Positions 2,165-21,239 are shown, counted from the first letter of the stretch. The stretch: 32,000 nucleotides of DNA from an uncultured Actinomycetes bacterium (GCA_963709345.1 CAVPVX010000007.1:220881-252880), one strand, 5' to 3'. Notes: generated by a model from the letters alone, not told the origin. Numbers and translations are program-made.

Positions 2165-2818
2165 ATGACAATCGAAGAGCGCGCGCGAGATTTCGCCGTC
2201 GCGCTTGTCGCTATGGACCGCGTGCAAGCTGAGGAAGCGCTCCGCGCAGCCGCGGAGGAATCTGACGCCCCGACCGTCACCGAAGATGTCGTCACGCCCG
2301 CTCTCGAGAGGATCGGCGGTGACTGGGAACAAGGGGTGATCTCTCTCGCCCAGCTGTACATGGCCGGCCGGATCGCCGAACAGGTGGTGAGCGAGAAGCT
2401 GCCCTCCATGGCGACGCGCAAGGGCGAACGCCCTCAGCTGGCGATCGCCGTCCTCGAGGACCACCACACTCTCGGCAAGAGACTCGTACTCTCGGCTCTG
2501 CGCGCTTCGGGGCACGCCGTCGCCGACTACGGTCACGGCGTGCCCGTCGAACGCCTGGTACAACGATGCGACGCCGACAAGCCACGCGTGCTCCTCATCT
2601 CGACATTGATGCTTCCGGCGGCCCTCCGCGTGCGCGACGTCGTCCGTCAACTGGCGCTGCCCGGATCGCCGCCGGCCGTGGTCGTCGGCGGCGCCCCCTT
2701 CCGTCTCGATCCCGACCTGTGGCGAGAGGTCGGCGCCGACGCCGCCGGCCGTAATTCGACAGAGGCCGTTCGATTGGTCGACCATTTCCTGGGAGGTACG
2801 CGATGCCGGCGGAGATGA
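2165..2818 (+). CDS. Corrinoid (cobalamin-binding) protein, MtaC/MtbC-like, with B12-binding_2 helical cap and B12-binding Rossmann domain
   Basis: DxHxxG cobalamin lower-ligand motif EDHHTLGK at nt 2459-2476. N-terminal cap motif TPALERIGGDWEQGVISLAQLYMA. ATG at 2165 follows GGGAGG (2152-2157). The track ORF start at 2060 adds non-coding-looking residues. Confidence 0.85.
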   Translation: MTIEERARDFAVALVAMDRVQAEEALRAAAEESDAPTVTEDVVTPALERIGGDWEQGVISLAQLYMAGRIAEQVVSEKLPSMATRKGERPQLAIAVLEDHHTLGKRLVLSALRASGHAVADYGHGVPVERLVQRCDADKPRVLLISTLMLPAALRVRDVVRQLALPGSPPAVVVGGAPFRLDPDLWREVGADAAGRNSTEAVRLVDHFLGGTRCRRR

Positions 2819-3849
2819 CGTCCCTCGAGCGCGTCCTCACCACACTCGGTCACCGCGAGCCCGACCGCGTGCCCCTCTTCCTCCTCGTCACGATGCACGG
2901 CGCGAAGGAACTGGGCATGGGTCTGCAAGAGTACTTCTCGAAGGGAGAGAACGTCGCCGAAGGTCAGCTGCGCCTTCGCGAGAAGTACGGGCACGACTGC
3001 CTTTACGGCATCCTCTACGCCCCGCTCGAAGTCGAGGCTTGGGGCGGCGAGGTGATCTTCCGCGAAGACGGACCTACGAATTCCGGTGAACCGTTGATCC
3101 TCGACGTCGAGCAGATCCGCGCTCTGGAGCCGCCCGACGTGGCGACGAGCCCGGTGCTCGGCCGCGCCCTGCGAGCCATCGAAATCCTCAAGGAGCGCTC
3201 GCACGACGTGCCCATCGTCGGCTCCGTCGTGTCGCCCTTCTCCCTGCCGGTCATGCAGCTCGGCTTCGAGGCCTATCTCGACCTCATGGTCGAGCGCCGC
3301 GACTTGTTCGACCGCCTGATGGCCGTGAACGAAGAGTTCTGCGTGGCGTGGGCAAACGCCCAGTTCGCAGCCGGGGCCACAGCCGTCGCCTACTTCGACC
3401 CGGTCTCTTCCACGACGTGCGTCACGCCGCAGATGTATCTGGGCACCGGCTTCAAGGTGGCGCAGCGCACCATCGCCCGTATCCAGGGCCCCACGGCCAC
3501 GCACTTCGCCTCCGGACGCTGCGCCGGCATCATCGACGACGTGGCGCAGACCGGCACCGCGGGCGTCGGGGTGAGTGGCGAGGAGGATCTCGCCGCACTC
3601 AAACGAGCCGCCGCCGGCAAGCTCACCTTGCTCGGCAACCTCAATGGGATCACCATGCGCAACTGGACGGCGGAGCAGGCGGAGGCCGAGGTCAAGGCGG
3701 CCATCGCCGCAGCCGCTCCCGGCGGCGGGTTCATCCTCTCGGACAACCACGGCGAGATCCCCTTCCAGGTGCCCGACGAGGTCCTGCACGCGATCGCCGC
3801 AGCGACGCGCCGCTGGGGACGGTACCCCATCGACTGGGTCGATGACTGA
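2803..3849 (+). CDS. Uroporphyrinogen-decarboxylase (URO-D) family methyltransferase, MtaA/MtbA/CmuA-like (methylcorrinoid-dependent)
   Basis: 348 aa. The N-terminus (SLERVLTTLGHREPDRVPLFLL) and overall length are typical of MtaA-type URO-D proteins. GGGAGG at 2791-2796 lies 6 nt before the ATG at 2803. The gene overlaps the corrinoid gene by 16 nt. Confidence 0.8.
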   Translation: MPAEMTSLERVLTTLGHREPDRVPLFLLVTMHGAKELGMGLQEYFSKGENVAEGQLRLREKYGHDCLYGILYAPLEVEAWGGEVIFREDGPTNSGEPLILDVEQIRALEPPDVATSPVLGRALRAIEILKERSHDVPIVGSVVSPFSLPVMQLGFEAYLDLMVERRDLFDRLMAVNEEFCVAWANAQFAAGATAVAYFDPVSSTTCVTPQMYLGTGFKVAQRTIARIQGPTATHFASGRCAGIIDDVAQTGTAGVGVSGEEDLAALKRAAAGKLTLLGNLNGITMRNWTAEQAEAEVKAAIAAAAPGGGFILSDNHGEIPFQVPDEVLHAIAAATRRWGRYPIDWVDD

Positions 3850-5848
3850 CGGCAGACTCAGGATCCACGTCTGCACGAACTTCGCTCCCGATGTGCGCGC
3901 GGCGCTGCCAAAGCAACTGGAAAGCGGCGTCGAGGTCGTGGAGTTCGCCGCCGACTGCGTCGGGTCGCAAGCCGACTGCGAGGCGTCCTGCGAGCGGATG
4001 CTCGATCCGGACGCCGCGCGCACGCAGTCGATGGCCGGCGACTCGCGGATCACGATCTCGCACACGGCCGGTGGAGACGACGTCTGTGCCCTGCGCTGCA
4101 CCGGCCCCGCCGGCTACCGGCTCGTCAACCACGAGATCGCCGAGCAGCTCGTCGCCGACGGCGCCTACCTTCTCACCCCAGGCTGGGCGCAGCGGTGGCG
4201 GAGCTATCTGCGAGCCCAGGGCTTCGATCGAACGCTCGCAAGGCAGTACTTCCACGAATTCGCCTCGCAACTGGTACTGCTCGACACCGGCACCGACCCA
4301 CAGGCGCTGGAGCGTCTCCACGAGATGGGCGTCTTCCTCGACCTGCCCACACGACGGCTGCCGTGTGGCCTCGACTACCTCCGGCTGTTCCTCACCGGCC
4401 TGGTGCTCGAATGGCGGCTGGACTCCCGGGGCGCGGCGCGTGACGGGGTCGATGACCAGGCCGCGGCCCGGCAGGCCGAGTACGCCGTCACACTCGACAT
4501 GCTGGGCACCCTGACTGGTCTCACCGACGAGGACGAGGTCGCCGACCGAGTGCTCGACCTGATCACGCTGCTCTTCGCGCCCGGCCGGCTGCATCTGCTG
4601 ACCATCGAGGGTGGGCGGCCGGGCGAGTTGCGTTCCCGTCCCTCGACACCGACGCCTGCGGCCCGGACGATCGCGGCACGGCTTGCTGCGCTGACCGGAG
4701 ACTTCGAGCTCACTGACGACGGATTCCTCCTGCTCGTCGGGAACGGCGACGACCGCGCCGCTGTCGAGCTCGGCGACTTCGCCCTGCCCGACAAGCGCGA
4801 TGATTACCTCAATCTTGCGCTCACCCTGGCCGGCGCCTTCGACCTCGCCCTGGCGAACTCGCGCAGCTTCGGGCGCCTGGAGCGCGCCCGCCTGGAGCTG
4901 AGCGCTTCCGAAGAGCGGTATCGCGCGCTCATGGAGCAGGCCACCGACGCGATAGTGCTCGTCGACGTCAAGGGGTCGGTCCTGGAAGCGAACGGTCAGG
5001 CGCTACGCCTGATGGGCAAGCCCCGCGACGAAGTCGTGGGGCTTCCTGCAGAGGCTCTGCACGCCGGCGCCATCCAACACGCGATGCACGGCTGTCTGGA
5101 GGGCCTCCTCAGAGACGGCGTCGCCGCCGTCGACGACATTCGCCTGACGCGACCAGACGGTGAAGAGGCCGTCATCGACGCCAGGTTCTCCATGGTCAGC
5201 GTCGCCGGCCGGCGCATCGCTCAGGGTATCTTCCGCGACGTCACGGAGCGTGAGCGCTCGGCGCGGATGCTCGAGGCGCTGTCGCTCGAAGACCCCCTGA
5301 CCGGGCTGCGCAATCGGCGCGGCTTCACGATTCTGGCCGAGCAGGAGCTCAAAACGGCGGCCCGTCTCGGTCGGCCGCTTCTCCTGCTCTACGCCGACCT
5401 CGACGGGCTGAAGCCGATCAACGACGGACAGGGCCATGCGGCCGGCGACAGCCTCCTGCGAGAGACGGCGGAAGTGCTGTCCGGCTGCTTCCGCGACATG
5501 GACGTCGTCGCCCGGGTCGGCGGTGACGAGTTCGCGATCCTGCAGATCGACGCCGCCGCCGGAGCGGAAGCGTCCGTCCGCAGGCGGCTGGAGCTGGCGA
5601 CCGCGGCGGTCAACGCGAGGCCGGACCGCCGCTACATCCTCTCGCTCTCAGTTGGCGCCGTCGCGTTCGACCCGGCGGCGCCCGCGGCGCTTGATGACCT
5701 GCTGCGGCTCGCCGACGCGCGCATGTACGCGGACAAACGAGCCCGGAAGGCGGGCAACACAGGCCGCGACCGGCAGCGAAGAGGCGTCGCCACGGCCCGA
5801 GAGCCGGGCGGCGCGCGCACGGAGGGCCCCGCCGCGCCTGGTCGATGA
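3842..5848 (+). CDS. Multidomain diguanylate cyclase: N-terminal DUF1638-like domain, GAF-like region, PAS, GGDEF (with I-site)
   Basis: The ATG at 3842 overlaps the stop of the methyltransferase gene by 8 nt; the track ORF start at 3575 is a shadow extension. The N-terminal ~195 aa (RIHVCTNFAPDV...AYLLTPGWAQRWRSYL...LVLLDTG...CGLDYLRLFL) resembles DUF1638. PAS begins near SEERYRALMEQATDAIVLVD. GGDEF lies at nt 5519-5533, and RDMD (RxxD, nt 5492-5503) sits five residues upstream, as in PleD-type I-sites. Confidence 0.8.
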   Translation: MTDGRLRIHVCTNFAPDVRAALPKQLESGVEVVEFAADCVGSQADCEASCERMLDPDAARTQSMAGDSRITISHTAGGDDVCALRCTGPAGYRLVNHEIAEQLVADGAYLLTPGWAQRWRSYLRAQGFDRTLARQYFHEFASQLVLLDTGTDPQALERLHEMGVFLDLPTRRLPCGLDYLRLFLTGLVLEWRLDSRGAARDGVDDQAAARQAEYAVTLDMLGTLTGLTDEDEVADRVLDLITLLFAPGRLHLLTIEGGRPGELRSRPSTPTPAARTIAARLAALTGDFELTDDGFLLLVGNGDDRAAVELGDFALPDKRDDYLNLALTLAGAFDLALANSRSFGRLERARLELSASEERYRALMEQATDAIVLVDVKGSVLEANGQALRLMGKPRDEVVGLPAEALHAGAIQHAMHGCLEGLLRDGVAAVDDIRLTRPDGEEAVIDARFSMVSVAGRRIAQGIFRDVTERERSARMLEALSLEDPLTGLRNRRGFTILAEQELKTAARLGRPLLLLYADLDGLKPINDGQGHAAGDSLLRETAEVLSGCFRDMDVVARVGGDEFAILQIDAAAGAEASVRRRLELATAAVNARPDRRYILSLSVGAVAFDPAAPAALDDLLRLADARMYADKRARKAGNTGRDRQRRGVATAREPGGARTEGPAAPGR

Positions 5849-6266
5849 AGGCGAACCCCCGCTCGAACACCCGGCCGCAGGCGGCGGCCACGCCCGGGTC
5901 GTAGAGGCGGCCGGGCTTGGTGAGGATCTCCGCCGGCGCCGCCACCTCGCCGATGTCGTGGACCTCACCGGCGAGGATCAGCGTCTCGAGGGCCTCGCCG
6001 TCGATGCCGGGCTCGACCGCGAGCGCCACGGCAAACTGCGTCACGCGGCGCTCGTGGCCGTCGGGGCACGGGTCGCGCGTCTCCACCAGCGCGCCGACGG
6101 TGTCGCGGACCAACTCGCCACGCGAATGCACAGACCGGATCTCGCCGTCGTGATCCACTACTGCAGACGAGAACGAGAAGGCGTCGTTCAGGCCGTCGAA
6201 CAGATCGTGGAGCTTGAGAGCGTCCAGCAGGTCCCCGAGCTTGCAGCGCGACGGCACGGTCATCAT
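5610..6266 (-). pseudogene. HD-GYP-type phosphodiesterase domain remnant, C-terminally truncated
   Basis: ETRDPCPDGHERRVTQFAVALA and GEVHDIGEVAAPAEILTKPGRLY match the first half of HD-GYP domains (RD-x-YT-x-GH-x-RV and HDIGK...KPG-x-L). The HHE...GYP half is absent. Beyond about nt 5876 the frame becomes Arg/Ala/Pro filler with mixed third positions, and it overlaps the GGDEF gene tail by 239 nt. Confidence 0.45.
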
Positions 6267-6540: not shown

Positions 6541-7410
6541 ATGACACTCAAGCTCGGTCTACCCAAGGGGAGCCTCGAGCACGCGACCATCGACCTCTTC
6601 CGCCGCGCCGGCTTTCTCATCACCGTCGCGGAGCGCTCCTACTTCCCGGCCATCGACGATCCGGACATCGAGTGCATGCTCGTGCGCGCCCAGGAGATGG
6701 CGCGCTACATCGAAGATGGCGCGCTCGACTGCGGCCTCACCGGCCGCGACTGGGTGGTCGAGAACGAGGCGACCGTCCACACCGTGAGCGACCTCGTGTA
6801 CGCCAAACAGAGCTTCGGCCGGGTCCGCTGGGTGCTCGCCGTCCCCGAGGCGTCCCCCGTCCGGACCGCCTCCGACCTCGAAGGCAAGATCGTCGCCACC
6901 GAACTCGTCGGCGTCACCAGGCGCTGGTTCGCCAAGCGCGACGTCGGCGCCAAGATCGAGTTCAGCTGGGGCGCCACCGAAGCCAAGCTGCCCGAGCTCG
7001 CGGACGCCATCGTGGAGGTCACCGAGACGGGCAGTTCCCTGCGCGCCAACAAGCTGCGCGTCGTCGAGACGGTGCTCGAGAGCACGACGCAGCTGATCGC
7101 CAACGAGTCCGCGTGGCAGGACGCGGACAAGCGCCGCAAGATCGAGGACGTCGCCATGCTTCTGCAGGGCGCCATCGCGGCTCTCGACAAGGTCGGGCTG
7201 ATGCTGAACGTCCAGGCCGGCGACCTCGACAGGGTGCTCGCCGTCCTCCCCGCGCTCCGCAACCCGACCATCTCGCACCTCAGTGACGAGGGCTGGCTCG
7301 CCGTCAACACGATCCTCGAAGAGAGCGTGGTGCGCACGATCATCCCCCGCCTGAAGGAAGCCGGCGCCGAGGGCATCGTCGAGTTCCCTCTCAACAAGAT
7401 CGTGATGTAG
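6541..7410 (+). CDS. hisG: ATP phosphoribosyltransferase, long form with C-terminal regulatory domain
   Basis: [25 protein letters not shown]... and ...[14 protein letters not shown]... are classic HisG motifs. The ATG at 6541 is preceded by GGGAAGGAGGG. No other his genes are adjacent. Confidence 0.9.
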
Positions 7411-7428
7411 CCGCCGGCCGCAGCGTCC

Positions 7429-8190
7429 TCAGGCGCCGGGGAGCCGGCGAGCCGCCGCGAGCGCATCGCGCTCGCTCAGGCGGCCGTACGTCGGCGCCAG
7501 TTCGTGCGCCGTCACCGGCAGCCAGATGAACCCGTCGCGCTCGTCGCCCACCGGCGTCGCAAGGCCTTGGGCGAAGCGCCGGGCGGTGAGAGCGGCCGCG
7601 AGCGCATCGAGCGAGTCGTGGTCGAAGTAGCCGTCCCAGACGAGACCGGCCGCGCGGAGTGCGGCGACGCGCGCGTGCAGGCCGGCGCGGCCGGTCTTCG
7701 GCGGCGGGGTACCGCCGAGCAGGGTCACGAAGGTGGCGTGCGGGTACACCTCGAGCGCTGCCGGCGCCTGCCCGAGCGCCGCCGGCAGGGAGCCGGGGGC
7801 CGGCGGCTCGTAGCCGTGCCGGCCCAGCTCCTTGAAGTAGTCCCAGCCCGTCTGCATCCAGCCGTAGCGCGCGCCGGCCGCGACGGCCGCGGCGCGCGTC
7901 GGCACCTGGTAGATGGAGATGCGCCGCCCGGCGAGATCGGCGTCGCATGCCCGCGGGCGCGGAGCGCCTGCGGCGCGCGCCCGCCGCGGCCTCTGCGGCG
8001 CGTCGACGCCGACCGCGACCGCTCCAAGGCCGTCAAGCCACTCCAGCAGACGACCCCGGTCGCCGGCGATGCGCTCGTCGGACTCCCGCCAGCTCTCGAC
8101 TTCGAGCGTGCGCCCGCAGCGCAAGGCAACGGCCACGCATGGCCGGCTGGCGGCGATGTCGATCCCGACGACGACCTGCCCCGTATCCAT
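7429..8190 (-). CDS. DUF429 family protein (predicted RNase H-like fold)
   Basis: N-terminal VVGIDIAASR...GVDAPQ...CDADLAGRRISIYQVP pattern is typical of DUF429. TAGTCT lies 7 nt upstream of the ATG with no RBS, so the start looks leaderless. Confidence 0.6.
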   Translation of the reverse strand: MDTGQVVVGIDIAASRPCVAVALRCGRTLEVESWRESDERIAGDRGRLLEWLDGLGAVAVGVDAPQRPRRARAAGAPRPRACDADLAGRRISIYQVPTRAAAVAAGARYGWMQTGWDYFKELGRHGYEPPAPGSLPAALGQAPAALEVYPHATFVTLLGGTPPPKTGRAGLHARVAALRAAGLVWDGYFDHDSLDALAAALTARRFAQGLATPVGDERDGFIWLPVTAHELAPTYGRLSERDALAAARRLPGA

Positions 8191-8271
8191 ACGGGCAGAC
8201 TAGCAGACCCGGGAGCGGGGGCGAAGAGCCGGCGCCGTGACAGAAGGCCGAGAGCCCCAGCCGCCTGTGGA

Positions 8272-9568
8272 TCAGGGAGCCTTCAGCGTGACGTCGCGCA
8301 CACCCCAGACCGACCAGTTCGGGTAGTTCCCGCGCGCGACGAAGCCGATCACGTTGCGGCTCTTGGCCTTCAACGCGGCCGCCGGGATCGTCACCTCACG
8401 GAACGGGCTCCACTTCTTGACGGCGCCCGCGGGTAGTCTGCCCATGTCCTGCCAGTTCACGACGAGGCGCACCTCGCTCGCCTGGACGTCGTAGAGCCTG
8501 AAGCGAAGGACGCGCTCACCCGCCTGGCCGGAGGTCTGGTAGAAGACCTCCTTCGGGTGCGTGCGGTCGGCGGCGCAGTACCCCAGTCGGGCCGCGTGCG
8601 GCAGATCGAGCGGCAGCGCCTTACGCTGCCGAGGGTTGACGCGAACGTTGCGCAGAGCGGTCCAGTCGGCCTTGTTGGTCGTCGCCCAGTCGTACATGCT
8701 GCCGCCCAGCGCGCCGTTCTCACGCAGGGCACGGACGTACGCCTTGGTCTCGGTGCCCGACGACTTGGCGGCGTCGCCGGCGATCACGTGGATGGGGATG
8801 GACGGCCGGCCGGTCTTCTCGCGGATGATGCGTATGTTGTCGCGCGTGTCGCGGTACGCATTGGCGTAGCCGTCGCCGTGGTACGTGTAGTACCCCATCG
8901 GCACGAAGACGTTGTAGATGCCGGCCAGCGTCTTGTACGGGAAGTTCGGCCAGTAGCCCGTGTGCATGGCCATGCCGGCCGGCGACGGGGTGATGGCTCC
9001 GAGCGTGTAGCTCGAGCCGACGGCCGCACGGATCCTCTTCGACAACGTCTTGAGCCGACTGTTGCGCACCTTCACGCTTCTTGACGATGCTCGCCTCGAT
9101 GTCGAGGGCGAACGAGTCGAACTTCTGCCCGTCGGACGTGCGGAAGCGGATCGCCGCCATGCTGCGCTTGTAGTCTTTGGCGACATCCTTGAAGCCCGGC
9201 AGATACCAGGCCACGACCTTGATGCCACGGGCGTGGCACTGCCGGATGAGCGCCGCGACCGCGTCACGCCGGAAGATCGTGTCGGCGTTCTCGGGCTTGT
9301 GGTAGTTCGCCGTCTCGAGATACAGGGTCCGGACGCCCTGCGCCTGCATGTGCTTGGCCGCGGCGGCCGGGTTGTCCAGCGCCTTGGCGTCGTACATGTC
9401 GACCCAGGTGCCGAGGCCACGGTAGGCGTTGATCGAGACTCCGGCGGCCGCCTGCGGCAGCGCTGCGGCCGCGAGCGCCGCGAGGAGCACGAGCGCCGCG
9501 AGCGAGACTGCGAGGCGGCGGCGTGGAGCCCGGCGCCCGGAGGATCCAAAGGAAGGAAGGACGATCAC
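8272..9568 (-). pseudogene. Secreted TIM-barrel glycoside-hydrolase-like protein with C-terminal beta-sandwich domain; reading frame broken once (frameshift or assembly indel)
   Basis: The N-terminal half is in the frame of track ORF 8720..9760: signal peptide RRLAVSLAALVLLAALAAAALPQAAAG, then ...WVDMYD...LYLETANY...FALDIEASIVKK. The C-terminal half is in the frame of ORF 8272..9549: VKVRNSRLKTLSKRIRAAVG...IHVIAGDAAKSS.... The frames switch at about nt 9067-9085. The start is uncertain (GTG 9568 or 9574). Confidence 0.6.
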
Positions 9569-9691
9569 GTACACACCCCCACGGTGGCTGTCGGTGCGAG
9601 CCCAAGTATACGACGTCGGCGGCCGAGACGCCTGCGGCGGCCGGCCCCGACCGTGGTACTGTGCACCGGACACCGTCGCGAAGGAGGTCCC

Positions 9692-10210
9692 GTGAGCATC
9701 GACTACGTCCTGCAGCAGCTCGGCGCCACCGAGGATATCCGCTACACCGAGCGCCACCACTGGGTCTTCTTCGTCGCCGAGATGATCCGCTGGATCCTGT
9801 TCGCGGTGGTCGTGCTCGCCCTCATCATCATGCTGCGGGTCTGGTGGCTTCCGGACGCCGGCTGGGTGTGGTGGCTGCTGCTGCTCTTCCTCGTGCCGGC
9901 CGGACGCATCGCCTGGGGATTCCTGTCGTGGCGCATGAACGTCTACGTGCTCACCAACCGGCGCGTGATCGAGTCGACGGGAGTGCTGAGCAAGCGCGTC
10001 TCCGACTCGTCACTCGAGAAGCTCACCGACATCGTCCTCAAGCAGTCGATCCTCGGCCGCATGCTGGGCTACGGGGACATCGTCGTCCTCACGGCGGCGG
10101 CCGGCGCAGGCGTCAACCACCTCAAGCAGATCCGTAAGCCCATGGAGTTCAAGACCCAGATGCTCGACGCCAAGGAAGAACTCGAGCGCGAAGTCGGCCG
10201 CAGCGACTGA
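9692..10210 (+). CDS. Membrane protein with bacterial PH domain (bPH_2, YdbS/YdbT-like)
   Basis: GTG at 9692 is preceded by AAGGAGG (9681-9687). Two TM helices are followed by YVLTNRRVIESTGVLSKRVSDSSLEKLTDIVLKQSILGRMLGYGDIVV, the bPH_2 signature. The upstream part of the track ORF (9050..) is antisense to the neighbouring gene. Confidence 0.8.
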   Translation: MSIDYVLQQLGATEDIRYTERHHWVFFVAEMIRWILFAVVVLALIIMLRVWWLPDAGWVWWLLLLFLVPAGRIAWGFLSWRMNVYVLTNRRVIESTGVLSKRVSDSSLEKLTDIVLKQSILGRMLGYGDIVVLTAAAGAGVNHLKQIRKPMEFKTQMLDAKEELEREVGRSD

Positions 10211-10378
10211 CGCCGCGGCCGCCGGACGTCTGCTGTCGCGTGCGCGACGAGTTCGGCCGCGCACATCGAGGAGTACGTCGCCGGGCACTGACCGCCGCTG
10301 TCGGCCGGCGCGACGCGGCCCGCGCGGAGCAGGTCCGTCAGCACCGGGGCCGGTCCGCACGACGCACCCTGCCGGGGC

Positions 10379-10798
10379 TCAGGCTCCGAGAAGCCGATCG
10401 AAGGCGAAGAGCGCAGCGGCGACGGCCTCACGATCGATCGTGTAGAAGGTCCACTTGCCGCGCACCTCGGCGCGCATCAGGCCGGCGTCGCGCAACACCT
10501 TCAGGTGATACGACACCTTGGATTGCGCCAAGCCGAACTGCTCCTGGAACTCGCAGACGCAGATGCCCCGAGGCTGCCCGGCTCCCGGAACGCCGCGAGA
10601 CGCGGGGTCGGGCAGCTCGCAGCAGCTTCTCCCCTGTTCAACGACGTCGAGCATCTCGAGCCGGATCGGATCGGAGAGCGCCTTCGCCACGAGGGCCAGC
10701 CGCGCCAGGTCGCGCTGGCCGAATCGCGCGCGGCACGACGACGGAGGGTCGCTCGTCCGCCCGTGTCGCGCGTCCCTGATCCCCGCCTGAGCACTCAT
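10379..10798 (-). CDS. arsR: ArsR/SmtB-family metalloregulator with CVC motif and an extra Cys-containing insertion
   Basis: ALSDPIRLEMLDVV...ICVCEFQEQFGLAQSKVSYHLKVLRDAGLM is a wHTH of ArsR type. It is divergent from arsM. TACGAT lies 8 nt upstream of the ATG with no RBS. Confidence 0.85.
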   Translation of the reverse strand: MSAQAGIRDARHGRTSDPPSSCRARFGQRDLARLALVAKALSDPIRLEMLDVVEQGRSCCELPDPASRGVPGAGQPRGICVCEFQEQFGLAQSKVSYHLKVLRDAGLMRAEVRGKWTFYTIDREAVAAALFAFDRLLGA

Positions 10799-10834
10799 GG
10801 CCGCGATCGTACCACAGCTTTTCTTGATTTGGGG

Positions 10835-10862
10835 TTGACCGCAGTCCCTGCCGCCGTATGAT
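10835..10862 (+). promoter_or_regulatory. Sigma-70-type promoter for arsM (TTGACC - 16 nt - TATGAT)
   Basis: TTGACC at 10835-10840 and TATGAT at 10857-10862, about 40 nt upstream of the arsM ATG, within an AT-enriched divergent intergenic region. Confidence 0.5.
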
Positions 10863-10902
10863 AGTAACGAAACAAGTTGATTTGACGAAGCGAGAGGACG
10901 AC

Positions 10903-11754
10903 ATGAGCGAACGACCGGCCGAGGGCCTCAAGGATCAGATCCGCAACCACTACGCGGAGCGCGCCGTCGCGGCTGCGCAGCCACAGCCGTGCGGGTGCGG
11001 CTGCAGCTGCGGCCCCGCCGCCGTCGAGCCGCGGGAGGATATCGCGCGGGGACTCTACGCGATCGACGAGACCAGCGCGCTGCCGGCCGAGGCGGTCCTC
11101 GCCAGCCTCGGCTGTGGCAACCCGACGTCGCTCGCCGACCTGCAGCCCGGCGACGTCGTCCTCGACCTCGGCAGCGGCGGCGGCATCGACGTGTTGCTCT
11201 CGGCCCGGCGCGTCGGCCCCACCGGCAAGGCCTACGGGCTCGACATGACCGACGAGATGCTCGCGTTGGCTCGTGAGAACCGGCGCAAGGCCGGCGTGGA
11301 CAACGTCGAGTTCCTCAGGGGCGACATCGAGAACATCCCGCTCCCCGATGCTTCGGTCGACGTCATCATCAGCAACTGCGTCATCAACCTCTCGCTCGAC
11401 AAAGACCGGGTGTTGGCCGAAGCCTTTCGGGTTCTCAAGCCCGGCGGGCGCTTCGCGGTCAGCGACATCCTCTTCCAGGGCGACGTAGGCAGGATCCCAC
11501 AGAGTCTGCTCGACGATACGGAAGCGTGGGCCGGATGTGTCGCCGGCGCGCTCGAGGAAGAGGACTTCCTGGCGCGCCTCGGCACGGCGGGGTTCGTCGA
11601 CGCCGGCGTCGAGGTCACCGCCATCTACGACGGCTCACCTGACAACAGCGTCTGCGGCGCGCCGGCGCTCCCGGACGGCGTCCGGCTGATCAGCGGCTTC
11701 GTGCGCGCCGTGAAGCCGAGCGCCGGCGGCTGCTGCGGCGGCTGCTGCTGCTGA
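10903..11754 (+). CDS. arsM: Arsenite S-adenosylmethionine methyltransferase
   Basis: SAM-binding [12 protein letters not shown], ArsM-typical LGCGNP and SNCVINL motifs, and Cys-rich N-terminal (CGCGCSCG) and C-terminal (CCGGCCC) segments. ATG at 10903 follows GAGAGGA. Confidence 0.9.
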
Positions 11755-11796
11755 AGCGGCGCGCGACACCCGGCCACACGCAATCGGACGTCCACC

Positions 11797-12996
11797 TCAG
11801 AGAACGAGGTTGAACAGCAGGCCGACGAACATGATGCCGACCCCGACGACGCCCAGGAACGTGGCGATGAGCGGCCACTTCAGAACCTTGCGCAGGATGA
11901 TCGTCTCGGGCAGCGAGAGCGCGATGACCGCCATCATGAAGGCCAGGACGGTGCCCAGAGCGGCGCCTTTCTCGAGCAGCGCCTGGACGATCGGGATGAT
12001 GCCCGCGGCGTTGGAGTACATGGGGATGCCGAAAAGGACCGCCGCCGGCACGCTCCACCAGGCGTCGGCTCCCATGATCCCGGCCATGAAGTTCTCAGGC
12101 ACGTAGCCGTGGATGACGGCGCCGACGGCGATGCCGGCGAGCACGTACGGCCACACCTTGCCGACGATGTCCTTCACCGACTGCCATGCGTAGGCAATGC
12201 GCCCCGACCAGTCGAGCTCCTCGCCGTCCTCGGCATCGCCCATGCGGATCTCGCGCACCCAATCCTCAACGTAGCGATCCATCTTGAGCCGGCCGATGAT
12301 CCAGCCCGCAACGATTGCGATGAGCAGGCCCGTGACGAGATACAGGCCGGCCACCTCCCAGCCGAACAGGCCGTAGAGCAGCACCAGCGCGACCTCGTTG
12401 ACCATCGGCGCGGCGATCAGGAATGAGAAGGTGACGCCCAGCGGGATGCCCGCCTCGACGAAGCCGATGAACAACGGCACGGCGGAGCAACTGCAGAACG
12501 GGGTCACCGTACCGAGGCCCGCGGCCATCACGTTCCCCGTGGTCTCCCGACGGCCGTGGAGCAGGGCGCGGGTCCGCTGCGGGCTGAAGAACGTGCGCAC
12601 GATCCCGACGCCGAAGACGACGATGGTCAGCAGCATCAGCACCTTGACGGTGTCGTAGATGAAGAACTCGAGCGAAGACCCGAAGCGACCGTCGCCCAGA
12701 TCGAGGAGGCCCTGCGTGAGCCACGTGGCGATCGGCAGCCAGTAGTGGTACGAGACCGCCCACGCGCCGACGCCGAGCACGACCCTCGTCCACAGCGGGA
12801 GACGCAGCCAGAGACGCACGAGCACCTTGTGCGGCGCGCGGCTGGGCGGCGCGCCGGGAGCCGGGGATGGAGTGGCCTCCGGCTCCGCGACGAAGGCGGC
12901 CGGCGGGGTGCCGCACTCACACATGGGCACGACGCGCTGCGCCTCCGGGTCCTCCTCGGCCGCGGAAGGCACAGCGTCGATCGTCTGCCGGGTCAT
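11797..12996 (-). CDS. arsP: ArsP-like permease (predicted permease family, formerly DUF318/UPF0718) with TPFCSCS vicinal-cysteine motif
   Basis: Polytopic membrane protein with GTVTPFCSCSAVPLFIGF, the C-x-C motif described for the organoarsenical efflux permease ArsP. The RBS lies inside the 3' end of the upstream phosphoesterase gene (7-nt gap), so the two form an operon. Confidence 0.7.
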   Translation of the reverse strand: MTRQTIDAVPSAAEEDPEAQRVVPMCECGTPPAAFVAEPEATPSPAPGAPPSRAPHKVLVRLWLRLPLWTRVVLGVGAWAVSYHYWLPIATWLTQGLLDLGDGRFGSSLEFFIYDTVKVLMLLTIVVFGVGIVRTFFSPQRTRALLHGRRETTGNVMAAGLGTVTPFCSCSAVPLFIGFVEAGIPLGVTFSFLIAAPMVNEVALVLLYGLFGWEVAGLYLVTGLLIAIVAGWIIGRLKMDRYVEDWVREIRMGDAEDGEELDWSGRIAYAWQSVKDIVGKVWPYVLAGIAVGAVIHGYVPENFMAGIMGADAWWSVPAAVLFGIPMYSNAAGIIPIVQALLEKGAALGTVLAFMMAVIALSLPETIILRKVLKWPLIATFLGVVGVGIMFVGLLFNLVL

Positions 12997-13003
12997 GAGC
13001 GAT

Positions 13004-13753
13004 TCATCCTTCCCGAGCGTCCGCCGGCGCGGCGAAGCTGGTGATCAGTGGTGTCTGCGCAAGCCCGTCCAGGAGACGATCGTAGTCGTAGGGGACGCGC
13101 ACGAACTCGACGAGGCCCTCACCTGCGCCGAGCCCGGCCGGATCGACGATCGCGTAGCACGCCCGCCAGTCGCCATCCTTGGGCCGCCCCCCGCTCCCCA
13201 CGTTCACGAACGTCGTGTCGCCGACTCGCCGCGCGTAGGGCAGGTGCGTGTGTCCGAAGAGGATGGCCGGATACGGGTACTCGCGCGCCATGCGCTCCAT
13301 CGCCGAAGCGGGTCTGTCCTCGAACAGGTACTCGTTGATGCGTCGCGGGCTGCCGTGCACGGCGAGGATGTCACCGCCGGGCGTGACAAGCGTGAAGTGA
13401 TCGTCGAGCGTGCGCAGATATGACTTGACCTCGTCGGACACGGCCGTCTGGGTCCAGGCGAGCGACGCGGCGCCCTCGGCGCGCTGCTCGTCGGTCTTGT
13501 AGACGCAGCCGCAGTCGCCGGTCTCGAAGCCGATGCCTTGGTCGTAGTTGCCCATGAGGCTGGGTATGCCGCGGTCGCGCACGAGCAGAGCGACCTCGTT
13601 CGGCCAGGGCCCGTAGCCGACCAGGTCGCCGAGAGAGAGCGCCAGACCCAGGTGGCGGGCCTCGACGTCCGCCAGGATCGCCTCGAGGCCCGGCAGATTG
13701 CCGTGCACGTCGGCGAACACCGCAAACGGCTCGGCGGTCCGGATGGTCTTCAC
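13004..13753 (-). CDS. Metallophosphoesterase (calcineurin-like, YfcE/MJ0936-type)
   Basis: Motifs FADVHGN, GDLVGYG, GNYD, FGHTH. I chose the GTG at 13753 (VKTIRTAEPFAV...) because GGGAGGAG lies 7 nt upstream; the track ATG at 13804 has no RBS. Confidence 0.8.
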   Translation of the reverse strand: MKTIRTAEPFAVFADVHGNLPGLEAILADVEARHLGLALSLGDLVGYGPWPNEVALLVRDRGIPSLMGNYDQGIGFETGDCGCVYKTDEQRAEGAASLAWTQTAVSDEVKSYLRTLDDHFTLVTPGGDILAVHGSPRRINEYLFEDRPASAMERMAREYPYPAILFGHTHLPYARRVGDTTFVNVGSGGRPKDGDWRACYAIVDPAGLGAGEGLVEFVRVPYDYDRLLDGLAQTPLITSFAAPADAREG

Positions 13754-13812
13754 GCGGTGGCTCCTCCCTGAGGTTCTGGTCACGGGCGACGGCATGTCAT
13801 ACAATTTATATC

Positions 13813-13849
13813 AACGTATCTTGACCATAAACGATTGTCAATGTACGGT
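13813..13849. promoter_or_regulatory. Interlocked divergent promoters and probable ArsR operator between the phosphoesterase/arsP operon and the acr3 operon
   Basis: Plus strand: TTGACC (13821-13826), 17 nt, TACGGT (13844-13849). Minus strand: TTGACA (13841-13836), 17 nt, TACGTT (13818-13813). The two -35 boxes form the inverted repeat TTGAC-N11-GTCAA. The site is embedded in an AT-rich patch at 13793-13847. Confidence 0.45.
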
Positions 13850-13890
13850 GCGCCACGTCAGCCCACGCCGGCGCCAAGGAGACGACCTCG

Positions 13891-15006
13891 ATGCCCCGGA
13901 GCACTATCAAGCGACTCTCGTTCCTCGACCGGTACCTCACCGGCTGGATCTTCCTCGCCATGGCCGTGGGCGTGTTCCTCGGCTGGGCCTTCACCGGTGT
14001 GCCCGACTTCATCAACCAGTTCAACGTCGGCACGACGAACATCCCCATCGCCATCGGGCTCATCGTGATGATGTATCCGCCACTCGCCAAGGTGAAGTAC
14101 GAGGAGCTCGGCGACGTCTTCCGCGACTACAGGATCCTGGGCCTCTCTCTGGTGCAGAACTGGCTCATCGGCCCGTTCCTGATGTTCTTCCTCGCCATCA
14201 TCTTCCTGAGCGACTACCCCGAGTACATGGTAGGGCTCATCATGATCGGCCTGGCGCGCTGCATCGCCATGGTCATCGTCTGGAACCAGCTCGCCAGGGG
14301 CGACGCCGAGTACGCCGCCGGGCTGGTCGCCTTCAACAGCGTCTTCCAGGTGCTCTTCTACAGCCTCTTCGCCTGGATCTTCGTCACCAAGCTGCCGCCG
14401 CTCTTCGGCCTCGAGGGCGTCGCCGTCGACATCACCATCGGCCAGATCGCCGAGAGCGTCGCCATCTACCTCGGCATCCCGTTCGTCGCCGGGATGATCA
14501 GCCGGTATGTCGGCATCAAGACGAAGGGTCGTGAGTGGTACGAGCAGAAGTTCATCCCGCGCATCAGCCCGCTCACACTCATCGCCCTGCTGTTCACCAT
14601 CCTCGTCATGTTCAGCCTCAAGGGCGACCTCATCGTGGAGCTGCCTCTCGACGTCGTGCGCATCGCCGTGCCGCTGCTCATCTACTTCGTCGTCATGTTC
14701 TTCGTGAGCTTCTTCATGGGCCGCAAGATCGGCGCCGACTACTCCAAGACCGCGACCCTGTCCTTCACCGCCGCCAGCAACAACTTCGAGCTGGCGATCG
14801 CCGTGAGCGTGGCCGTGTTCGGGATCGGCTCGGGCGTCGCCTTCGCCGCGGTCATCGGGCCGCTCGTGGAAGTCCCAGTCCTGATCGGCCTCGTCAACGT
14901 GTCCCTGTGGCTGGGACGCAAGTACTGGGGCGTGACCGACGAACCCGTGCCGGAGGCCGTGGCCGCCGGCGTCGACGAGGTCGCCTGCGACCCCCGGAGG
15001 AGCTGA
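13891..15006 (+). CDS. acr3: Arsenite efflux transporter, ACR3 family
   Basis: [20 protein letters not shown]...[21 protein letters not shown]...LIGPFLMF... is a full-length ACR3 signature. AAGGAG lies 9 nt upstream of the ATG. Confidence 0.92.
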
Positions 15007-16189: not shown

Positions 16190-16783
16190 ATGCGCAGCAG
16201 ACGGGCAGACCAGCACGGTTTCGCGTTCATCGAGCTTCTCGTCGTGATCATCATCATCGGCATCCTCGCAGCCATCGCCATCCCCATGTACATCGGCGAG
16301 CGCGACAAGGCCAAGGAAGTCTCGCTCAAGGCCAGCAGCCACATCGTGGCGGTCGAGGTCGCCACCTGCCACACGAACAGCAGCCTCAGCAACATCTACC
16401 TCGCCAGCGGCGGGTCACCCACCAAGGCAGCGTACATCGCACGAGCGAAGACGAACGTGAGCAACGCGCTTGAGGCCGCGCTCGAGAACGGCGTTCAGAG
16501 CAGCAATGGGGACAGCATCGTCAATCCCTACTCGCACAAGAAGGCGATCCTCAACTCGGCATCCATACCCTCAGCGGCGAACGCCGGGGCCGCGGTATGG
16601 ATCACGGGCCAGAAGAGCACAGGCACATACTGCTACAACAGATTCCCGACCAACAGCACGACGAAGGCCAGGCTGGCGGGCAGCGTCGTCGCCTGCGTGA
16701 ACAGCGGAACCAGCAACATCGAGATCTTCTTCGTCGACAAGAACGGCAGGAAGTCCGCCGCCTGCACCTACATCAGATTCTGA
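16190..16783 (+). CDS. Type IV pilin / pseudopilin-like protein with prepilin-type N-terminal cleavage-methylation signal
   Basis: MRSRRADQHG|FAFIELLVVIIIIGILAAIAIP: Gly at -1, Glu at +5 and a hydrophobic alpha1-N helix. C-terminal Cys residues suggest a possible disulfide loop. GGGGAGAGAG precedes the ATG. Confidence 0.8.
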   Translation: MRSRRADQHGFAFIELLVVIIIIGILAAIAIPMYIGERDKAKEVSLKASSHIVAVEVATCHTNSSLSNIYLASGGSPTKAAYIARAKTNVSNALEAALENGVQSSNGDSIVNPYSHKKAILNSASIPSAANAGAAVWITGQKSTGTYCYNRFPTNSTTKARLAGSVVACVNSGTSNIEIFFVDKNGRKSAACTYIRF

Positions 16784-17406
16784 ACGGCGGCCGGCGGCGG
16801 CGCAGCCGCTCCGCCGGCCGGCGCCGCCGCGGCCTCCCGCCGGCTCAGCTCTTGCGGCGTGTACTCCTTACCGACGCTCCAGCACTTGGCCACCGGCTCG
16901 CCCAGCGACCAGTACTTCTTGCTCGACATGTCGAAGAGCAGCGGCTTGACCTTGGCGATGTCGACGATGCCGTTGGTGAGCACGTCGACGTCTGCCCAGG
17001 TGCCCACGACCTCGCCGACGAAGAGGTCGTGGGTCGGCATCGCGATGTGCTCGATGAGCTTGCACTCCATCGTGACCTTGCACTGCTCGATCATGGGAGC
17101 GTTCTCGAGCTCGCCGTAGAAGACGTCGAAGATCGCGCTCTTGTCCTCCTTGGTGCCGCTCACCATGCCGATGTGGTCGGTCACGGCGACCAGATCCTCC
17201 GAGGGCAGGCTCACACTGAACGTCTTGTTGGCGATGATGCCCTTGTTGGTGAGGTGGATGTTGCCCATGCCGAGCGTGATGCCCTTGAGGTGAGCGATGC
17301 CGACGTGGGCGATGGTGGCGAAGTCCGCCTTGCCGTCGACGTCCGCGCCGATGATGGCGGTGACGAGCGGGTAGAGAACGTTGGTGGCGCCGAGCTTCTC
17401 CTTCAC
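16768..17406 (-). CDS. Flavin reductase-like FMN-binding split-barrel protein
   Basis: VLYPLVTAIIGADVDGKADFATIAH...VSGTKEDKSAIF... matches the flavin reductase-like domain. GTG start preceded by GAGAGG. The 3' end overlaps the pilin gene by 16 nt (convergent). Confidence 0.7.
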   Translation of the reverse strand: MKEKLGATNVLYPLVTAIIGADVDGKADFATIAHVGIAHLKGITLGMGNIHLTNKGIIANKTFSVSLPSEDLVAVTDHIGMVSGTKEDKSAIFDVFYGELENAPMIEQCKVTMECKLIEHIAMPTHDLFVGEVVGTWADVDVLTNGIVDIAKVKPLLFDMSSKKYWSLGEPVAKCWSVGKEYTPQELSRREAAAAPAGGAAAPPPAAVQNLM

Positions 17407-17554
17407 GGTGGCCTCTCTGGTCGCGGTGATCTGGTGCGTGACGGTTCCATACCCACGAGCAGGCCTGCGGTAATCGGGACCTCGTCGATGCGGGACGCAC
17501 CGGCTCGCGACGCCCGCGGTTCACAGCGGCGCCGCGAGCCGTCATCATGGGTGC

Positions 17555-18664
17555 ATGCCGCCCACCTCGGAAACGACGGCGCGTCGCCGCAGGCGGCCGC
17601 GCCGGCGCCGCATCCCCGCCCTGTTTCTGATCGTGGTCGCCGGCGGGCTCACGATCGCTCTCGCGTTCGCCCTCGCCAGCGCCCTGGACGACGACCGCCC
17701 CCACGGACCGTACCTCATCGGCGGCTGGACTTTCGGCGATCGCGCATCCCTCGAACGAGCCATCGACGCCGGCGCGATCGACGAGGTGAGCGTCGACTGG
17801 CTGCAATCGCGCCCCGACGGCAGCGTCGTGGCGCCCAAGCTCGACACGGGCTTCATCGCCGAGGCGAAGCGGCGGGACTGCAGGGTCTTCGTGACGCTGA
17901 CCGACTACGACGAGACGCGGCACACCTTCGACGCGGCGATCTCCGCCGCGATCCTCAAGACCGCGGAGTCGCGGCGGCGCCACGCCGCCGCCGTCGCCGC
18001 GTGGTGCCGCGAGTACGACGTAGCCGGCGTCGACATCGACTGGGAGGCGCTGAAGGCCTCCCAGCGCAATGCCTTCTCGGCCTTCGTCGAGGCGCTGGCG
18101 CGACGGCTGCACGACGACAAGCGCCTCATCGCCGTCGACGTCTACCCCAAGGTCCGCGAGCCCGGCGGATGGGACGGGCCGCGGTCGCAGGACTGGAAGC
18201 GCCTCGGCAGGGCGGTCGACCAGTTCCGCATCATGACCTACAACTACTCGGGCTCCTGGTCGGGTCCGGGGCCGCTCTCGCCCCCGGACTGGATGCACCG
18301 GGTGCTCGCCTTCGCCGAGACGCTGGTGCCGCCACGGCGCATCGTCATGGGCCTGGGCTTCTACGGCCGCGACTGGGTCGGTGACACGACAAGCGACCTC
18401 GTGTGGGGCGACGTGAGGGCCATCCGCGCCGCTCGCGATCCACTCCAGACCCGCACGGATTCGGGGGAGCTCCGCCTCGACTACCGGCGCGACGGCGACC
18501 GGCACATCGCGTACTTCCCCGACGCCGTCGCGATCGACGCCAAGCTAAGGATGCTTCTCGAGAAGCACCCGCAGGTACTCGGCGTCTACGCCTGGCACAT
18601 GGGCCAGGAGGATCCCGCCGTCTGGCGCGTGCTCAAGGAGTCACTCCACACTCGCGTTCCGTAG
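17555..18664 (+). CDS. Membrane-anchored glycoside hydrolase family 18 (chitinase-like) protein
   Basis: GH18 catalytic motif YDVAGVDIDWE (DxxDxDxE). N-terminal Arg-rich segment followed by a TM helix (IPALFLIVVAGGLTIALAFALASAL). Confidence 0.8.
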   Translation: MPPTSETTARRRRRPRRRRIPALFLIVVAGGLTIALAFALASALDDDRPHGPYLIGGWTFGDRASLERAIDAGAIDEVSVDWLQSRPDGSVVAPKLDTGFIAEAKRRDCRVFVTLTDYDETRHTFDAAISAAILKTAESRRRHAAAVAAWCREYDVAGVDIDWEALKASQRNAFSAFVEALARRLHDDKRLIAVDVYPKVREPGGWDGPRSQDWKRLGRAVDQFRIMTYNYSGSWSGPGPLSPPDWMHRVLAFAETLVPPRRIVMGLGFYGRDWVGDTTSDLVWGDVRAIRAARDPLQTRTDSGELRLDYRRDGDRHIAYFPDAVAIDAKLRMLLEKHPQVLGVYAWHMGQEDPAVWRVLKESLHTRVP

Positions 18665-18714
18665 AGCGCCCCAGGCATCTGCCGGTGGCTCCCACCCACG
18701 CGTCTCGCCATACA

Positions 18715-18753
18715 CCGGGGCTCCGGTGCGGTCTGTCCGCACCGGAGCCCCGG
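18715..18753. terminator. Bidirectional hairpin between the convergent GH18 and fasciclin genes
   Basis: Perfect 17-bp stem CCGGGGCTCCGGTGCGG / CCGCACCGGAGCCCCGG with 5-nt loop TCTGT. There is no strong U-tract on either side. Confidence 0.55.
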
Positions 18754-18780
18754 AAGGTGACGCGTCGTGCCGGAGCCGGA

Positions 18781-19308
18781 TTACGGGACCAGCACGGTGT
18801 CGATCACGTGGATGACGCCGTTGGAGGTCTCGATGTCGGCGGTAACGACCTTGGCGCCGTTGACCATCACGGTCCCGTCGTCCTCGATCGTGATCTTGAG
18901 CGACTCGCCATTGACGGTCTCCGCCATCATGCCGTCACTCAGATCGGTCGACAGTACCTTGCCGGGCACGACGTGATAGGTGAGCACGTCGGTCAGGGCG
19001 CCGCTGGGATCCGCGAACAGCGCGTCCAGCGTCTCCTGAGGCACCGCCGCGAAGGCTTCGTCCGTCGGGGCGAACACGGTGAACGGGCCTTCGCCCCTCA
19101 GAGTCTCCTCGAGACCCGCAGCCTGGACGGCGCTCACGAGGCTCGTGAACGATCCGGCCTCGACGGCGGTATCGACGATGTCCTTCTGAGCCATCGTCGG
19201 TTCCGGGGTGGGCGACGCGGCTTCCTCTTCCGTACTGCCGCACGCGACGATGATGAACGGCACCGTCAGTACGGCGACCACGGCCAGTACGAGCGACCAG
19301 CGTTTCAT
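18781..19308 (-). CDS. Fasciclin (FAS1) domain lipoprotein
   Basis: [23 protein letters not shown]|GS is a lipobox. FAS1 motifs are [10 protein letters not shown] and [11 protein letters not shown]. The ATG at 19308 follows GGGAGG by 6 nt; the track start at 19344 was rejected. Confidence 0.88.
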
Positions 19309-19416
19309 TGGTACCTCCCAAGCTTTGCTGTGGCTCACCGGCACTCTGACGGCCGGGGCCCCTCTGACGGAGCCGGAAGCGTTCTGGTGGAACCGCTCCG
19401 GACAATACGCCTGGAG

Positions 19417-19480
19417 GTATTCTGCCCTACTTCATAGAAAAGTAATCACTTCTATAGAGTAACTCTCTAGATACGCCTAA
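19417..19480. promoter_or_regulatory. AT-rich island with TCTATAGA-like inverted repeats (likely promoter/operator upstream of the fasciclin gene)
   Basis: TTCATAGAA (19431-19439), TTCTATAGAG (19450-19459) and CTCTCTAGATA (19464-19474) form imperfect inverted repeats inside the only AT-rich stretch of a 583-nt gap. Confidence 0.35.
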
Positions 19481-19810
19481 TCGGGCGTCTTCGCCCCGCA
19501 TTGCGCGCTCCGCACGCGAACTCGGTCCTCAGCCCGCGACCGCGACTGCGGCAGGTGGGAGACGCTGCGGACGACGAGCCCGGAGGGAGCGCCGGCCGGC
19601 GAGCAGACGCCCGCCGGCCGGCCGACACGACTGCCGCGCGGCGGACGCCGCGCGGCGTCCGCCGGGCGCCTGAGCAAGCTCCCGGCGGGAGGCCGGCGGA
19701 CCCTCGGCGCAGCGCGGCCGAACTGCGGGAAGCCGGACCACAGTCGCTTGGACTCCTATCGCGCTACAAGGCGGAAGAATGAGCACTATCTTTCGTCAGG
19801 TCTGAAGACG

Positions 19811-19854: not shown

Positions 19855-19891
19855 TCACTCGGTTCTGCTGAGGCGGCCCTTGCGAGACCCG

Positions 19892-21151: not shown

Positions 21152-21239
21152 GTACATCCCCCCCGTTCGCCTGAAGGCCGGTCGCCCCGAAGGGCCTCGT
21201 GCCGCCAAGGTTCTCGCACCCGAGCGGCCTTGTCACGCG

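Follow-up and report, generated by a model that had tools for sequence, protein, structure and literature searches.

Three overlapping genes in a 32,000-nucleotide (nt) stretch of DNA from an uncultured Actinomycetes bacterium (GCA_963709345.1, CAVPVX010000007.1:220881-252880; "the window" means this whole stretch) encode a corrinoid (B12) carrier protein, a URO-D-fold protein resembling MtaA and CmuA, and a sensor in which an N-terminal DUF1638 domain is followed by a GAF-like domain, a PAS domain and a GGDEF domain. We find that they belong to a cassette whose gene order is kept across many phyla, and whose DUF1638-GAF module is joined to exchangeable signalling outputs. We propose, from genomic evidence only and with a probability of about 0.55, that the three genes form a sensory device in which the DUF1638-GAF module would read the state of the corrinoid cofactor and the URO-D protein would set that state. 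The set in the window is a less common, GGDEF-type member, with a PAS domain and atypical cysteines, of a large family of cobalamin-protein sensors.

The genes and the domains of the sensor lie as follows (aa, amino acids; AF2, AlphaFold2):

2155-2160, + strand: Shine-Dalgarno-like GGGAGG, 4 nt 5′ of the corrinoid protein start (read from the sequence)
2165-2818, + strand: corrinoid (B12) carrier gene, 217 aa; ATG at 2165, TGA at 2816-2818 (Pfam)
2803-3849, + strand: gene for a URO-D-fold, MtaA/CmuA-like putative methyltransferase, 348 aa; ATG at 2803, TGA at 3847-3849 (Pfam)
3842-5848, + strand: sensor gene, 668 aa, DUF1638 / GAF-like / PAS / GGDEF; ATG at 3842
3842-4441, + strand: DUF1638 domain, residues 1-200 of the sensor (Pfam, alignments, AF2 model)
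4457-4786, + strand: GAF-like middle domain, residues 206-315 (AF2, Foldseek, tblastn)
4787-4912, + strand: long signalling helix, residues 316-357 (AF2 model, alignments)
4913-5251, + strand: PAS domain, residues 358-470 (Pfam)
5288-5749, + strand: GGDEF diguanylate cyclase domain, residues 483-636 (Pfam 3e-31; motif positions)

The three overlapping genes and their products

A preliminary description of this DNA gave the overlaps as 16 nt (corrinoid and URO-D genes) and 8 nt (URO-D and sensor genes), and the open reading frames (ORFs) and their stops bear this out. A GGGAGG box at 2791-2796 precedes the URO-D ATG at 2803, and an alternative start at 2815 would give an ATGA overlap of 4 nt. 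A terminator scan found no terminator-like site between the three genes on the + strand, and Rfam searches of the window and seven related loci found no B12 riboswitch or other RNA; a promoter scan of the window returned nothing, a result that is uninformative at the window's base composition (about 68% GC).

The 217-aa protein has the architecture of a corrinoid carrier, with a four-helix cap (Pfam B12-binding_2, 5e-13) followed by a Rossmann B12-binding domain (1e-18). It contains DHHTLG (the His-on DxHxxG motif, which is conserved in 65 orthologues), S-T-L and GG motifs, and is predicted to bind a His-on cobalamin. Among solved structures it is nearest to MttC (7xcn, 1e-15), MtmC, D. hafniense 4jgi and MtaC; methionine synthase and the photocobilins rank lower, with PDB 8j2y a weak match. 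The protein falls far under every NCBIfam cut-off (TIGR02370, 66.9 against 215.3 bits), the equivalog models included. Its cap motif, W..G..ALSQVYM, shares Trp and Gly with CarH-type caps; the Wx9EH of CarH is not present, Leu/Val and Tyr standing at the E-H positions, the CarH model scores 41.6 against a cut-off of 400, and there is no MerR domain.

The second protein matches Pfam URO-D at 1.4e-50, and its best PDB match is MtaA (4AY7, 1e-17). Against NCBIfam it too scores low: 100.8 against 235.4 bits for mtaA_cmuA, 79.8 against 400 for MtaA_Meth, and 42.5 bits for HemE. The zinc-ligand positions had been called atypical, and alignment to MtaA 4AY7 agrees, with the H-I-C of MtaA replaced by H234-F-A236 and the Cys of P-G-C-G by H316 in D-N-H-G-E, a HemE-type His-Gly motif where MtaA has Cys. 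Among 70 orthologues, at least 90% have A236 and all have H316-G-E-x-P; the changes are therefore found family-wide, and loss of the thiol-type zinc site is a trait of the family, not decay. We suggest that the protein moves methyl groups to or from the corrinoid cofactor. The view that the first two genes are a standard metabolic corrinoid and URO-D pair is not sustained: they form a dedicated subfamily, under the NCBIfam cut-offs, without the MtaA Cys and with no substrate-specific methyltransferase (MT1) or activase. Testing of window ORFs as far as 26 kilobases (kb) gave no MT1 or RamA-type gene, as had been noted.

In the sensor, the Pfam DUF1638 match (33.3 bits against a cut-off of 27) covers only residues 104-181, corresponding to model positions 77-158 of 161. 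An AF2 model of residues 1-360, built from 105 homologues and with a mean pLDDT (predicted local distance difference test) of 87, presents residues 1-200 as an alpha/beta Rossmann-like fold, residues 206-315 as a helix-capped antiparallel sheet, putatively of GAF type (pLDDT >90), and residues 316-359 as a 44-residue helix which joins the DUF1638-GAF input module to the domains downstream. Foldseek searches with residues 206-315 recovered phytochrome (GAF/PHY), Lcd1 and PDE5 GAF domains, as weak matches (E 1e-2 to 1e-3, target template-modelling score about 0.5); no solved structure convincingly like DUF1638 was found. Of the domains that had been named from the sequence, Pfam thus recovers DUF1638 in the part given above, PAS and GGDEF; for GAF, it has no match in residues 195-355. 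The tblastn matches at the 80 loci described below extend to about residue 350. DUF1638 and the GAF-like domain are conserved jointly, as an input module of two domains, and the signalling helix is conserved along with them.

The window sensor carries the marks of its family: the conserved DUF1638 motifs GAYLLTPGW and LVLLDTG, the GAF-like domain, the helix with its conserved YLNLAL...ANAR, the N-terminal placing of the module, and corrinoid and URO-D genes upstream. The GGDEF domain is intact, as first described, in its signature, its metal- and GTP-binding residues and its I-site (RDMD-x5-GGDEF at residues 551-564, the RxxD lying 5 residues upstream of the signature, and DLDGLKPIND at 519), and is predicted to synthesise cyclic di-GMP (c-di-GMP).

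Four cysteines of DUF1638 (alignment columns 11, 39, 68 and 90; window nt 3872-4111) are conserved at 99, 97, 81 and 92%, and by modelled secondary structure they lie at or just after successive beta strands. All four are present in five of six stand-alone DUF1638 forms that were compared, the sixth (P0117) having Arg at the third position. In most members of the sensor family, DUF1638 probably holds a four-cysteine metal or iron-sulphur (Fe-S) centre. In the window DUF1638, C11 and C39 are kept, and S68 and A90 replace the third and fourth cysteines; C82 and C86 are specific to its clade, being shared with the nearest relatives, two Thermoleophilia/Actinomycetes metagenome-assembled genomes (L011 and L012; 67-72% identity for the sensor and 88-90% for the URO-D protein). 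The AF2 model is at its least confident in this region, and the window clade may have relocated or lost the cysteine site.

Conservation of the cassette and exchange of its outputs

A genome scan, using one genome per species, returned 80 loci, at which tblastn was used to test whether the corrinoid protein, URO-D and DUF1638-GAF genes are adjacent on one strand. The order corrinoid protein, URO-D, DUF1638-GAF on the same strand was found at 76 of these loci, across more than 15 phyla, including Actinomycetota, Coprothermobacterota, Desulfobacterota, Chloroflexota, Verrucomicrobiota, Acidobacteriota and Myxococcota, and also in Betaproteobacteria. Cultured carriers among these loci include several Geomonas species, Desulfatitalea alkaliphila, Dethiosulfatarculus sandiegensis, Candidatus Viridilinea mediisalina and Rubrivivax sp. 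A210; Azoarcus sp. KH32C and Oscillochloris trichoides are others. Compared with the window proteins, URO-D proteins are 55-71% identical at most loci, corrinoid proteins 38-54% and sensor modules 25-40%. Such synteny in 76 of 80 independent loci excludes chance as the explanation of the gene association. Five metagenome loci, with sensors 31-38% identical to that of the window, have the same order with overlapping genes; a sigma-54 response regulator follows the cassette in one of these five. A first single-sequence protein search, with 17 relatives (DUF1638 fused to GGDEF or HisKA-HATPase already among them), had suggested that the architecture was rare, an impression overturned by the profile and genome scans.

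No other gene shares this association. All-against-all clustering of ORFs found no further family in more than 9 of the 80 loci, antisense shadows excepted; no MT1 or RamA-type activase is co-conserved with the cassette, transporter and cob genes are not associated with it, and there is no common downstream effector, the downstream genes being mostly additional kinases and receivers. The four remaining loci have no URO-D gene, and in these the corrinoid protein still adjoins the sensor. Thus the corrinoid protein and DUF1638 are the minimal invariant pair, with URO-D as a near-universal third member. Two loci without URO-D (L067:6992-7603 and L093:7001-7624) are laid out as kinase, stand-alone DUF1638, corrinoid protein and DUF1638-kinase, such that two DUF1638 copies flank one corrinoid protein. 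A Kiritimatiellia genome has the corrinoid protein, URO-D and then a stand-alone DUF1638 without an output domain. Pairwise identities across 54 loci correlate best between the corrinoid protein and DUF1638-GAF, with r = 0.81, and less well (0.60 and 0.49) when URO-D is one of the pair; kinship was not controlled for in these values, which are only suggestive of co-variation. An apparent URO-D-DUF1638 fusion (P0118) proved to be a single 1.5-kb contig with an internal deletion, and is not used as evidence here.

The outputs behind the module vary widely. All 72 complete sensors match the DUF1638 model at their N-terminus; 44 carry HATPase_c, 8 GGDEF and 1 SpoIIE, about 19 are proteins of about 410 aa with no recognised output, 12 have additional receiver domains, and only a minority (about 12) have PAS. 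Two more outputs, STAS (P0041) and HD-GYP (P0091), came from a profile search, as did stand-alone DUF1638 proteins. Among 1.84 billion representatives of 50%-identity clusters, the DUF1638-GAF profile matches about 1,066 clusters at E<=1e-30; among the best 150 of these, with proteins of 310-1,403 aa, the module begins within about 20 residues of the N-terminus in nearly all, a handful of entries being N-terminally truncated. Among the kinase versions, those with GGDEF are polyphyletic, some of them (L038 and L040) having kinase-type nearest relatives, so outputs have been exchanged repeatedly. An N-terminal module that stays fixed while its effectors are swapped is how input domains are usually recognised, and this argues that DUF1638-GAF is one. 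The earlier suggestion that DUF1638 is a sensory or partner-binding domain therefore gains support, from the cross-phylum gene order, the N-terminal module, the swapped outputs and the identity correlation, with its contact with the corrinoid protein and the signal that it would carry standing as predictions.

The short forms of about 410 aa make up about a quarter of the family (for example P0051 and P0057, from Geomonas, and L074:6977-8209). Their consensus has a C-terminal CxxC...W...YL...HGxCPxC with the look of a small zinc ribbon, which is not visible in Geomonas P0051.

Cofactor state as the proposed signal

How might such a device work? The URO-D enzyme would add methyl groups to protein-bound cobalamin, or remove them, using a small-molecule donor or acceptor. 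The DUF1638-GAF module would dock on the corrinoid protein and distinguish its methyl-Co(III), Co(I)/Co(II) and apo states, and a conformational signal would then pass along the long helix, and here also through PAS, to the GGDEF domain, such that the state of the cofactor would set c-di-GMP synthesis. Elsewhere the same input unit would drive histidine kinases, or PP2C phosphatase, STAS or HD-GYP outputs. What is sensed could be a methyl donor, redox state, B12 supply or light. Two findings from other systems favour the proposal: genetic work ties DUF1638 to the function of B12 proteins (bioRxiv 10.1101/192971), and MtpA and MtpC are a precedent for methyl loading by an MtaA-type enzyme with its corrinoid protein (bioRxiv 10.1101/548461). 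If the signal were a methyl donor, the cassette would be an enzyme-coupled chemosensor of a previously undescribed kind. More tentatively, and with rather less confidence than doubt, we suggest that the cassette could be a receptor in which a small methylated compound is sensed by catalysis, not by binding, with the methyl-Co(III), Co(I) or Co(II) state of cobalamin as its internal signal. This would be a first molecular function for DUF1638, and could explain the sensing of one-carbon (C1) substrates in some bacteria; catalytic methyl-transfer sensing, if confirmed, would be categorically new.

Several observations weigh against our proposal. No reductive activase or MT1 is co-conserved at the 80 loci, yet Co(I) chemistry normally needs an activase. 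The URO-D protein, without the Cys ligands of MtaA, has no nameable substrate, and its absence from four of the loci indicates that methyl transfer is not essential to sensing everywhere. The corrinoid/DUF1638 identity correlation is uncorrected for phylogeny. In the window itself, DUF1638 is without two of the four conserved cysteines and its residues 50-100 are poorly modelled, suggesting that the window clade may work differently.

Four other explanations were weighed. That B12-binding domains can act as photoreceptors is proven, and in one class such a light sensor is joined to a diguanylate cyclase, which it controls (photocobilin AbDPcob, PMC10979010). A light sensor built from the cassette would use light to break the Co-C bond of methyl- or adenosylcobalamin, DUF1638-GAF detecting the photolysed state and the URO-D methyltransferase, perhaps with a DUF1638 redox centre, re-methylating the cofactor to reset the system. 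The presence of the cassette in the phototrophs Oscillochloris, Viridilinea and Rubrivivax, and the CarH-type Trp and Gly of the corrinoid cap motif, are consistent with this. We nevertheless consider light sensing improbable: the CarH Wx9EH is missing, the corrinoid protein is nearer to methyltransferase corrinoid proteins than to CarH, and, by record titles, many carriers are anaerobes living in the dark, in a deep mine, groundwater, sediment and a sulfidic cave. These three points weaken the light hypothesis, and none of them is decisive; in addition, no photoglobin, bilin or MerR partner is present. Similarly, we give little credence to a sensor of cobamide availability or homeostasis, in which DUF1638-GAF would tell apo from holo protein and the URO-D fold would act as a partner for corrinoid handling or loading. 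The minimal pair of corrinoid protein and DUF1638 would suit this, as would the HemE-type His-Gly of the URO-D protein, whose fold family binds tetrapyrroles, and DUF1638 mutants resemble B12-function mutants (bioRxiv 10.1101/192971). Set against it are the lack of a B12 riboswitch, transporter or cob genes with the cassette, and the URO-D protein's scores of 100.8 bits for MtaA/CmuA and 42.5 for HemE.

A third possibility is a sensor of redox state, oxygen or oxidants. In Phaeobacter inhibens, Price and co-workers showed that a DUF1638 gene adjoins the B12-binding piece of a split methionine synthase, that the DUF1638 protein and a RamA-like protein are required for methionine synthesis (no mechanism was proposed), and that the two are co-distributed in Alphaproteobacteria (bioRxiv 10.1101/192971); in Ruegeria, a 2025 study describes DUF1638 and RamA as predicted cobalamin-recharging proteins that are induced on methylated osmolytes (PMC12478193). 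This co-occurrence of DUF1638 with RamA-like reactivators, and its proposed role in recharging Co(II) to Co(I), would fit a sensor in which the corrinoid normally cycles between Co(I) and methyl-Co(III), oxidants trap it as Co(II) and DUF1638 recognises that state as reductive activators do; the isolation of the MtpA/MtpC complex as Co(II) (bioRxiv 10.1101/548461) and four conserved cysteines compatible with a metal or Fe-S site would fit it too. It seems to us unlikely, all the same, as the cysteine site is putative and half-missing in the window, the carriers include aerobes as well as strict anaerobes, and there is no ATPase partner. Finally, the genes could be a metabolic methyltransferase operon beside an unrelated regulator, with DUF1638 only maintaining the corrinoid protein, as it would for the split methionine synthase, and GGDEF/PAS answering other cues. 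The Kiritimatiellia triad, with its stand-alone DUF1638, is what such an operon would look like, and in the window PAS offers an alternative input. This is disfavoured because no pathway partner (MT1, methyl acceptor pathway or activase) is co-conserved in the 80 loci; moreover, about 1,000 clusters have DUF1638 fused to signalling outputs as a rule, most members have no PAS, and DUF1638 is conserved jointly with the GAF-like domain and the helix. We regard it as very improbable.

Neighbouring genes and known systems

Immediately downstream, and convergent with the sensor gene, lies a second element of c-di-GMP signalling:

5847-6266, - strand: decayed remnant of a convergent PocR-PAS-PAS-HD-GYP phosphodiesterase gene (weak HD/HD_5 match; tblastn/BLASTP against L011 and L012)

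The remnant ORF (5610-6266, - strand) has homology over 5847-6242 with three deletions. What survives is some 35 aa from the N-terminus, the first half of HD and the final 20 aa, without the HHE..DG.GYP half. Having lost its stop, the ORF overlaps the 3′ end of the cyclase gene by about 240 nt. A chance HD fragment was considered, and was ruled out by comparison with L011 and L012, where Pfam finds intact convergent PocR-PAS-PAS-HD-GYP proteins of 652-668 aa (6679-8682, - strand, and 8973-10928, - strand, respectively). The cyclase is thus paired with a phosphodiesterase in these relatives, and the partner has decayed in the window genome. Small HD_5 proteins also occur near the cassette in Azoarcus, L051 (twice), L068 and L075, with a weaker match in L071.

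On plasmid pAZKH of Azoarcus sp. KH32C (NC_020548.1, 271288-276437; L094/L095) the cassette consists of corrinoid protein, URO-D, DUF1638 kinase and hybrid kinase. It stands between fae/fhcABCD and a pyrroloquinoline quinone (PQQ) methanol/ethanol dehydrogenase cluster, in a C1 island that also holds cbb/RuBisCO and methanofuran/tetrahydromethanopterin (H4MPT) biosynthesis genes. This context may hint at a C1 compound as the signal; methylotrophy genes of this type are not repeated within 7 kb at the other 80 loci.

Further along the window, at 10379-15006, is an arsenic-resistance-like cluster, seemingly unrelated to the cassette:

10379-10798, - strand: ArsR-type regulator
10858-11754, + strand: ArsM-like S-adenosylmethionine methyltransferase, Cys-rich at its N- and C-termini
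11797-12996, - strand: ArsP permease
13004-13804, - strand: metallophosphoesterase
13891-15006, + strand: SBF/Acr3-like transporter

Several long ORFs (344-643 aa, on both strands) at 16597-26181 have no Pfam match at E<=1e-3, and many of these may be spurious given the 68-76% GC of that region.

It had been left as a question whether DUF1638-output fusions are common and already characterised. Common they are, mostly with histidine kinases; a literature search, with subscription-only papers outside its reach, found no published description of the cassette, and the family is apparently undescribed. In the literature covered, DUF1638 is named in only four papers and its Pfam accession, PF07796, in only two. 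The DUF1638 domain is now directly testable, as its known genetic phenotype is joined by defined partners and an easily measured output, and Azoarcus sp. KH32C, Geomonas species and Oscillochloris trichoides are cultured carriers open to genetics.

The best sequence matches of the window pair are the corrinoid methyltransferase families of methanogens and acetogens (MtaC with MtaA, MtpC with MtpA, MtsA and CmuA), which likewise place a protein of about 210 aa, with cap, Rossmann domain and DxHxxG, beside a URO-D-fold enzyme. One MtaA-type enzyme and its corrinoid protein can by themselves be a substrate-specific methyl-loading pair, in a stable complex, and MtpA and MtpC are the example (bioRxiv 10.1101/548461). 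The cassette proteins differ in scoring far under the family cut-offs and in being without the two zinc Cys ligands; the cassette has no MT1, activase or acceptor pathway, and is tied to signalling, not to catabolism. The split methionine synthases of Phaeobacter inhibens and Ruegeria pomeroyi resemble it in having a stand-alone B12-binding protein that is linked, in function and position, to DUF1638. There, however, DUF1638 is a separate enzyme helper of about 200 aa, whereas in the cassette it forms the N-terminus of a signalling protein, ahead of the GAF-like domain, and has no RamA-like gene nearby.

For the recognition of one corrinoid oxidation state, the RACE-type activators RamA and RACo would provide a precedent. 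DUF1638 has no sequence relation to these, and is without their ATPase and ferredoxin domains, its possible redox role being suggested by the cysteines only. As for regulation, CarH/LitR, AerR/PpaA and the photocobilins all use the state of a protein-bound cobalamin to control a regulatory output, and AerR does so as a stand-alone B12 protein acting on a partner regulator, as we propose for the cassette. These, in contrast, are light sensors, with the B12 domain fused to the effector or binding it directly; they have no methyltransferase and no DUF1638, and their Wx9EH is absent from the cassette. To our knowledge, cobalamin-based signalling has so far been known only as light sensing (CarH, AerR and photocobilins) or as riboswitches; beside these, the cassette would be a protein-based route by which a B12 carrier, its chemical state acted on by an enzyme of its own, informs two-component and c-di-GMP pathways across many phyla.

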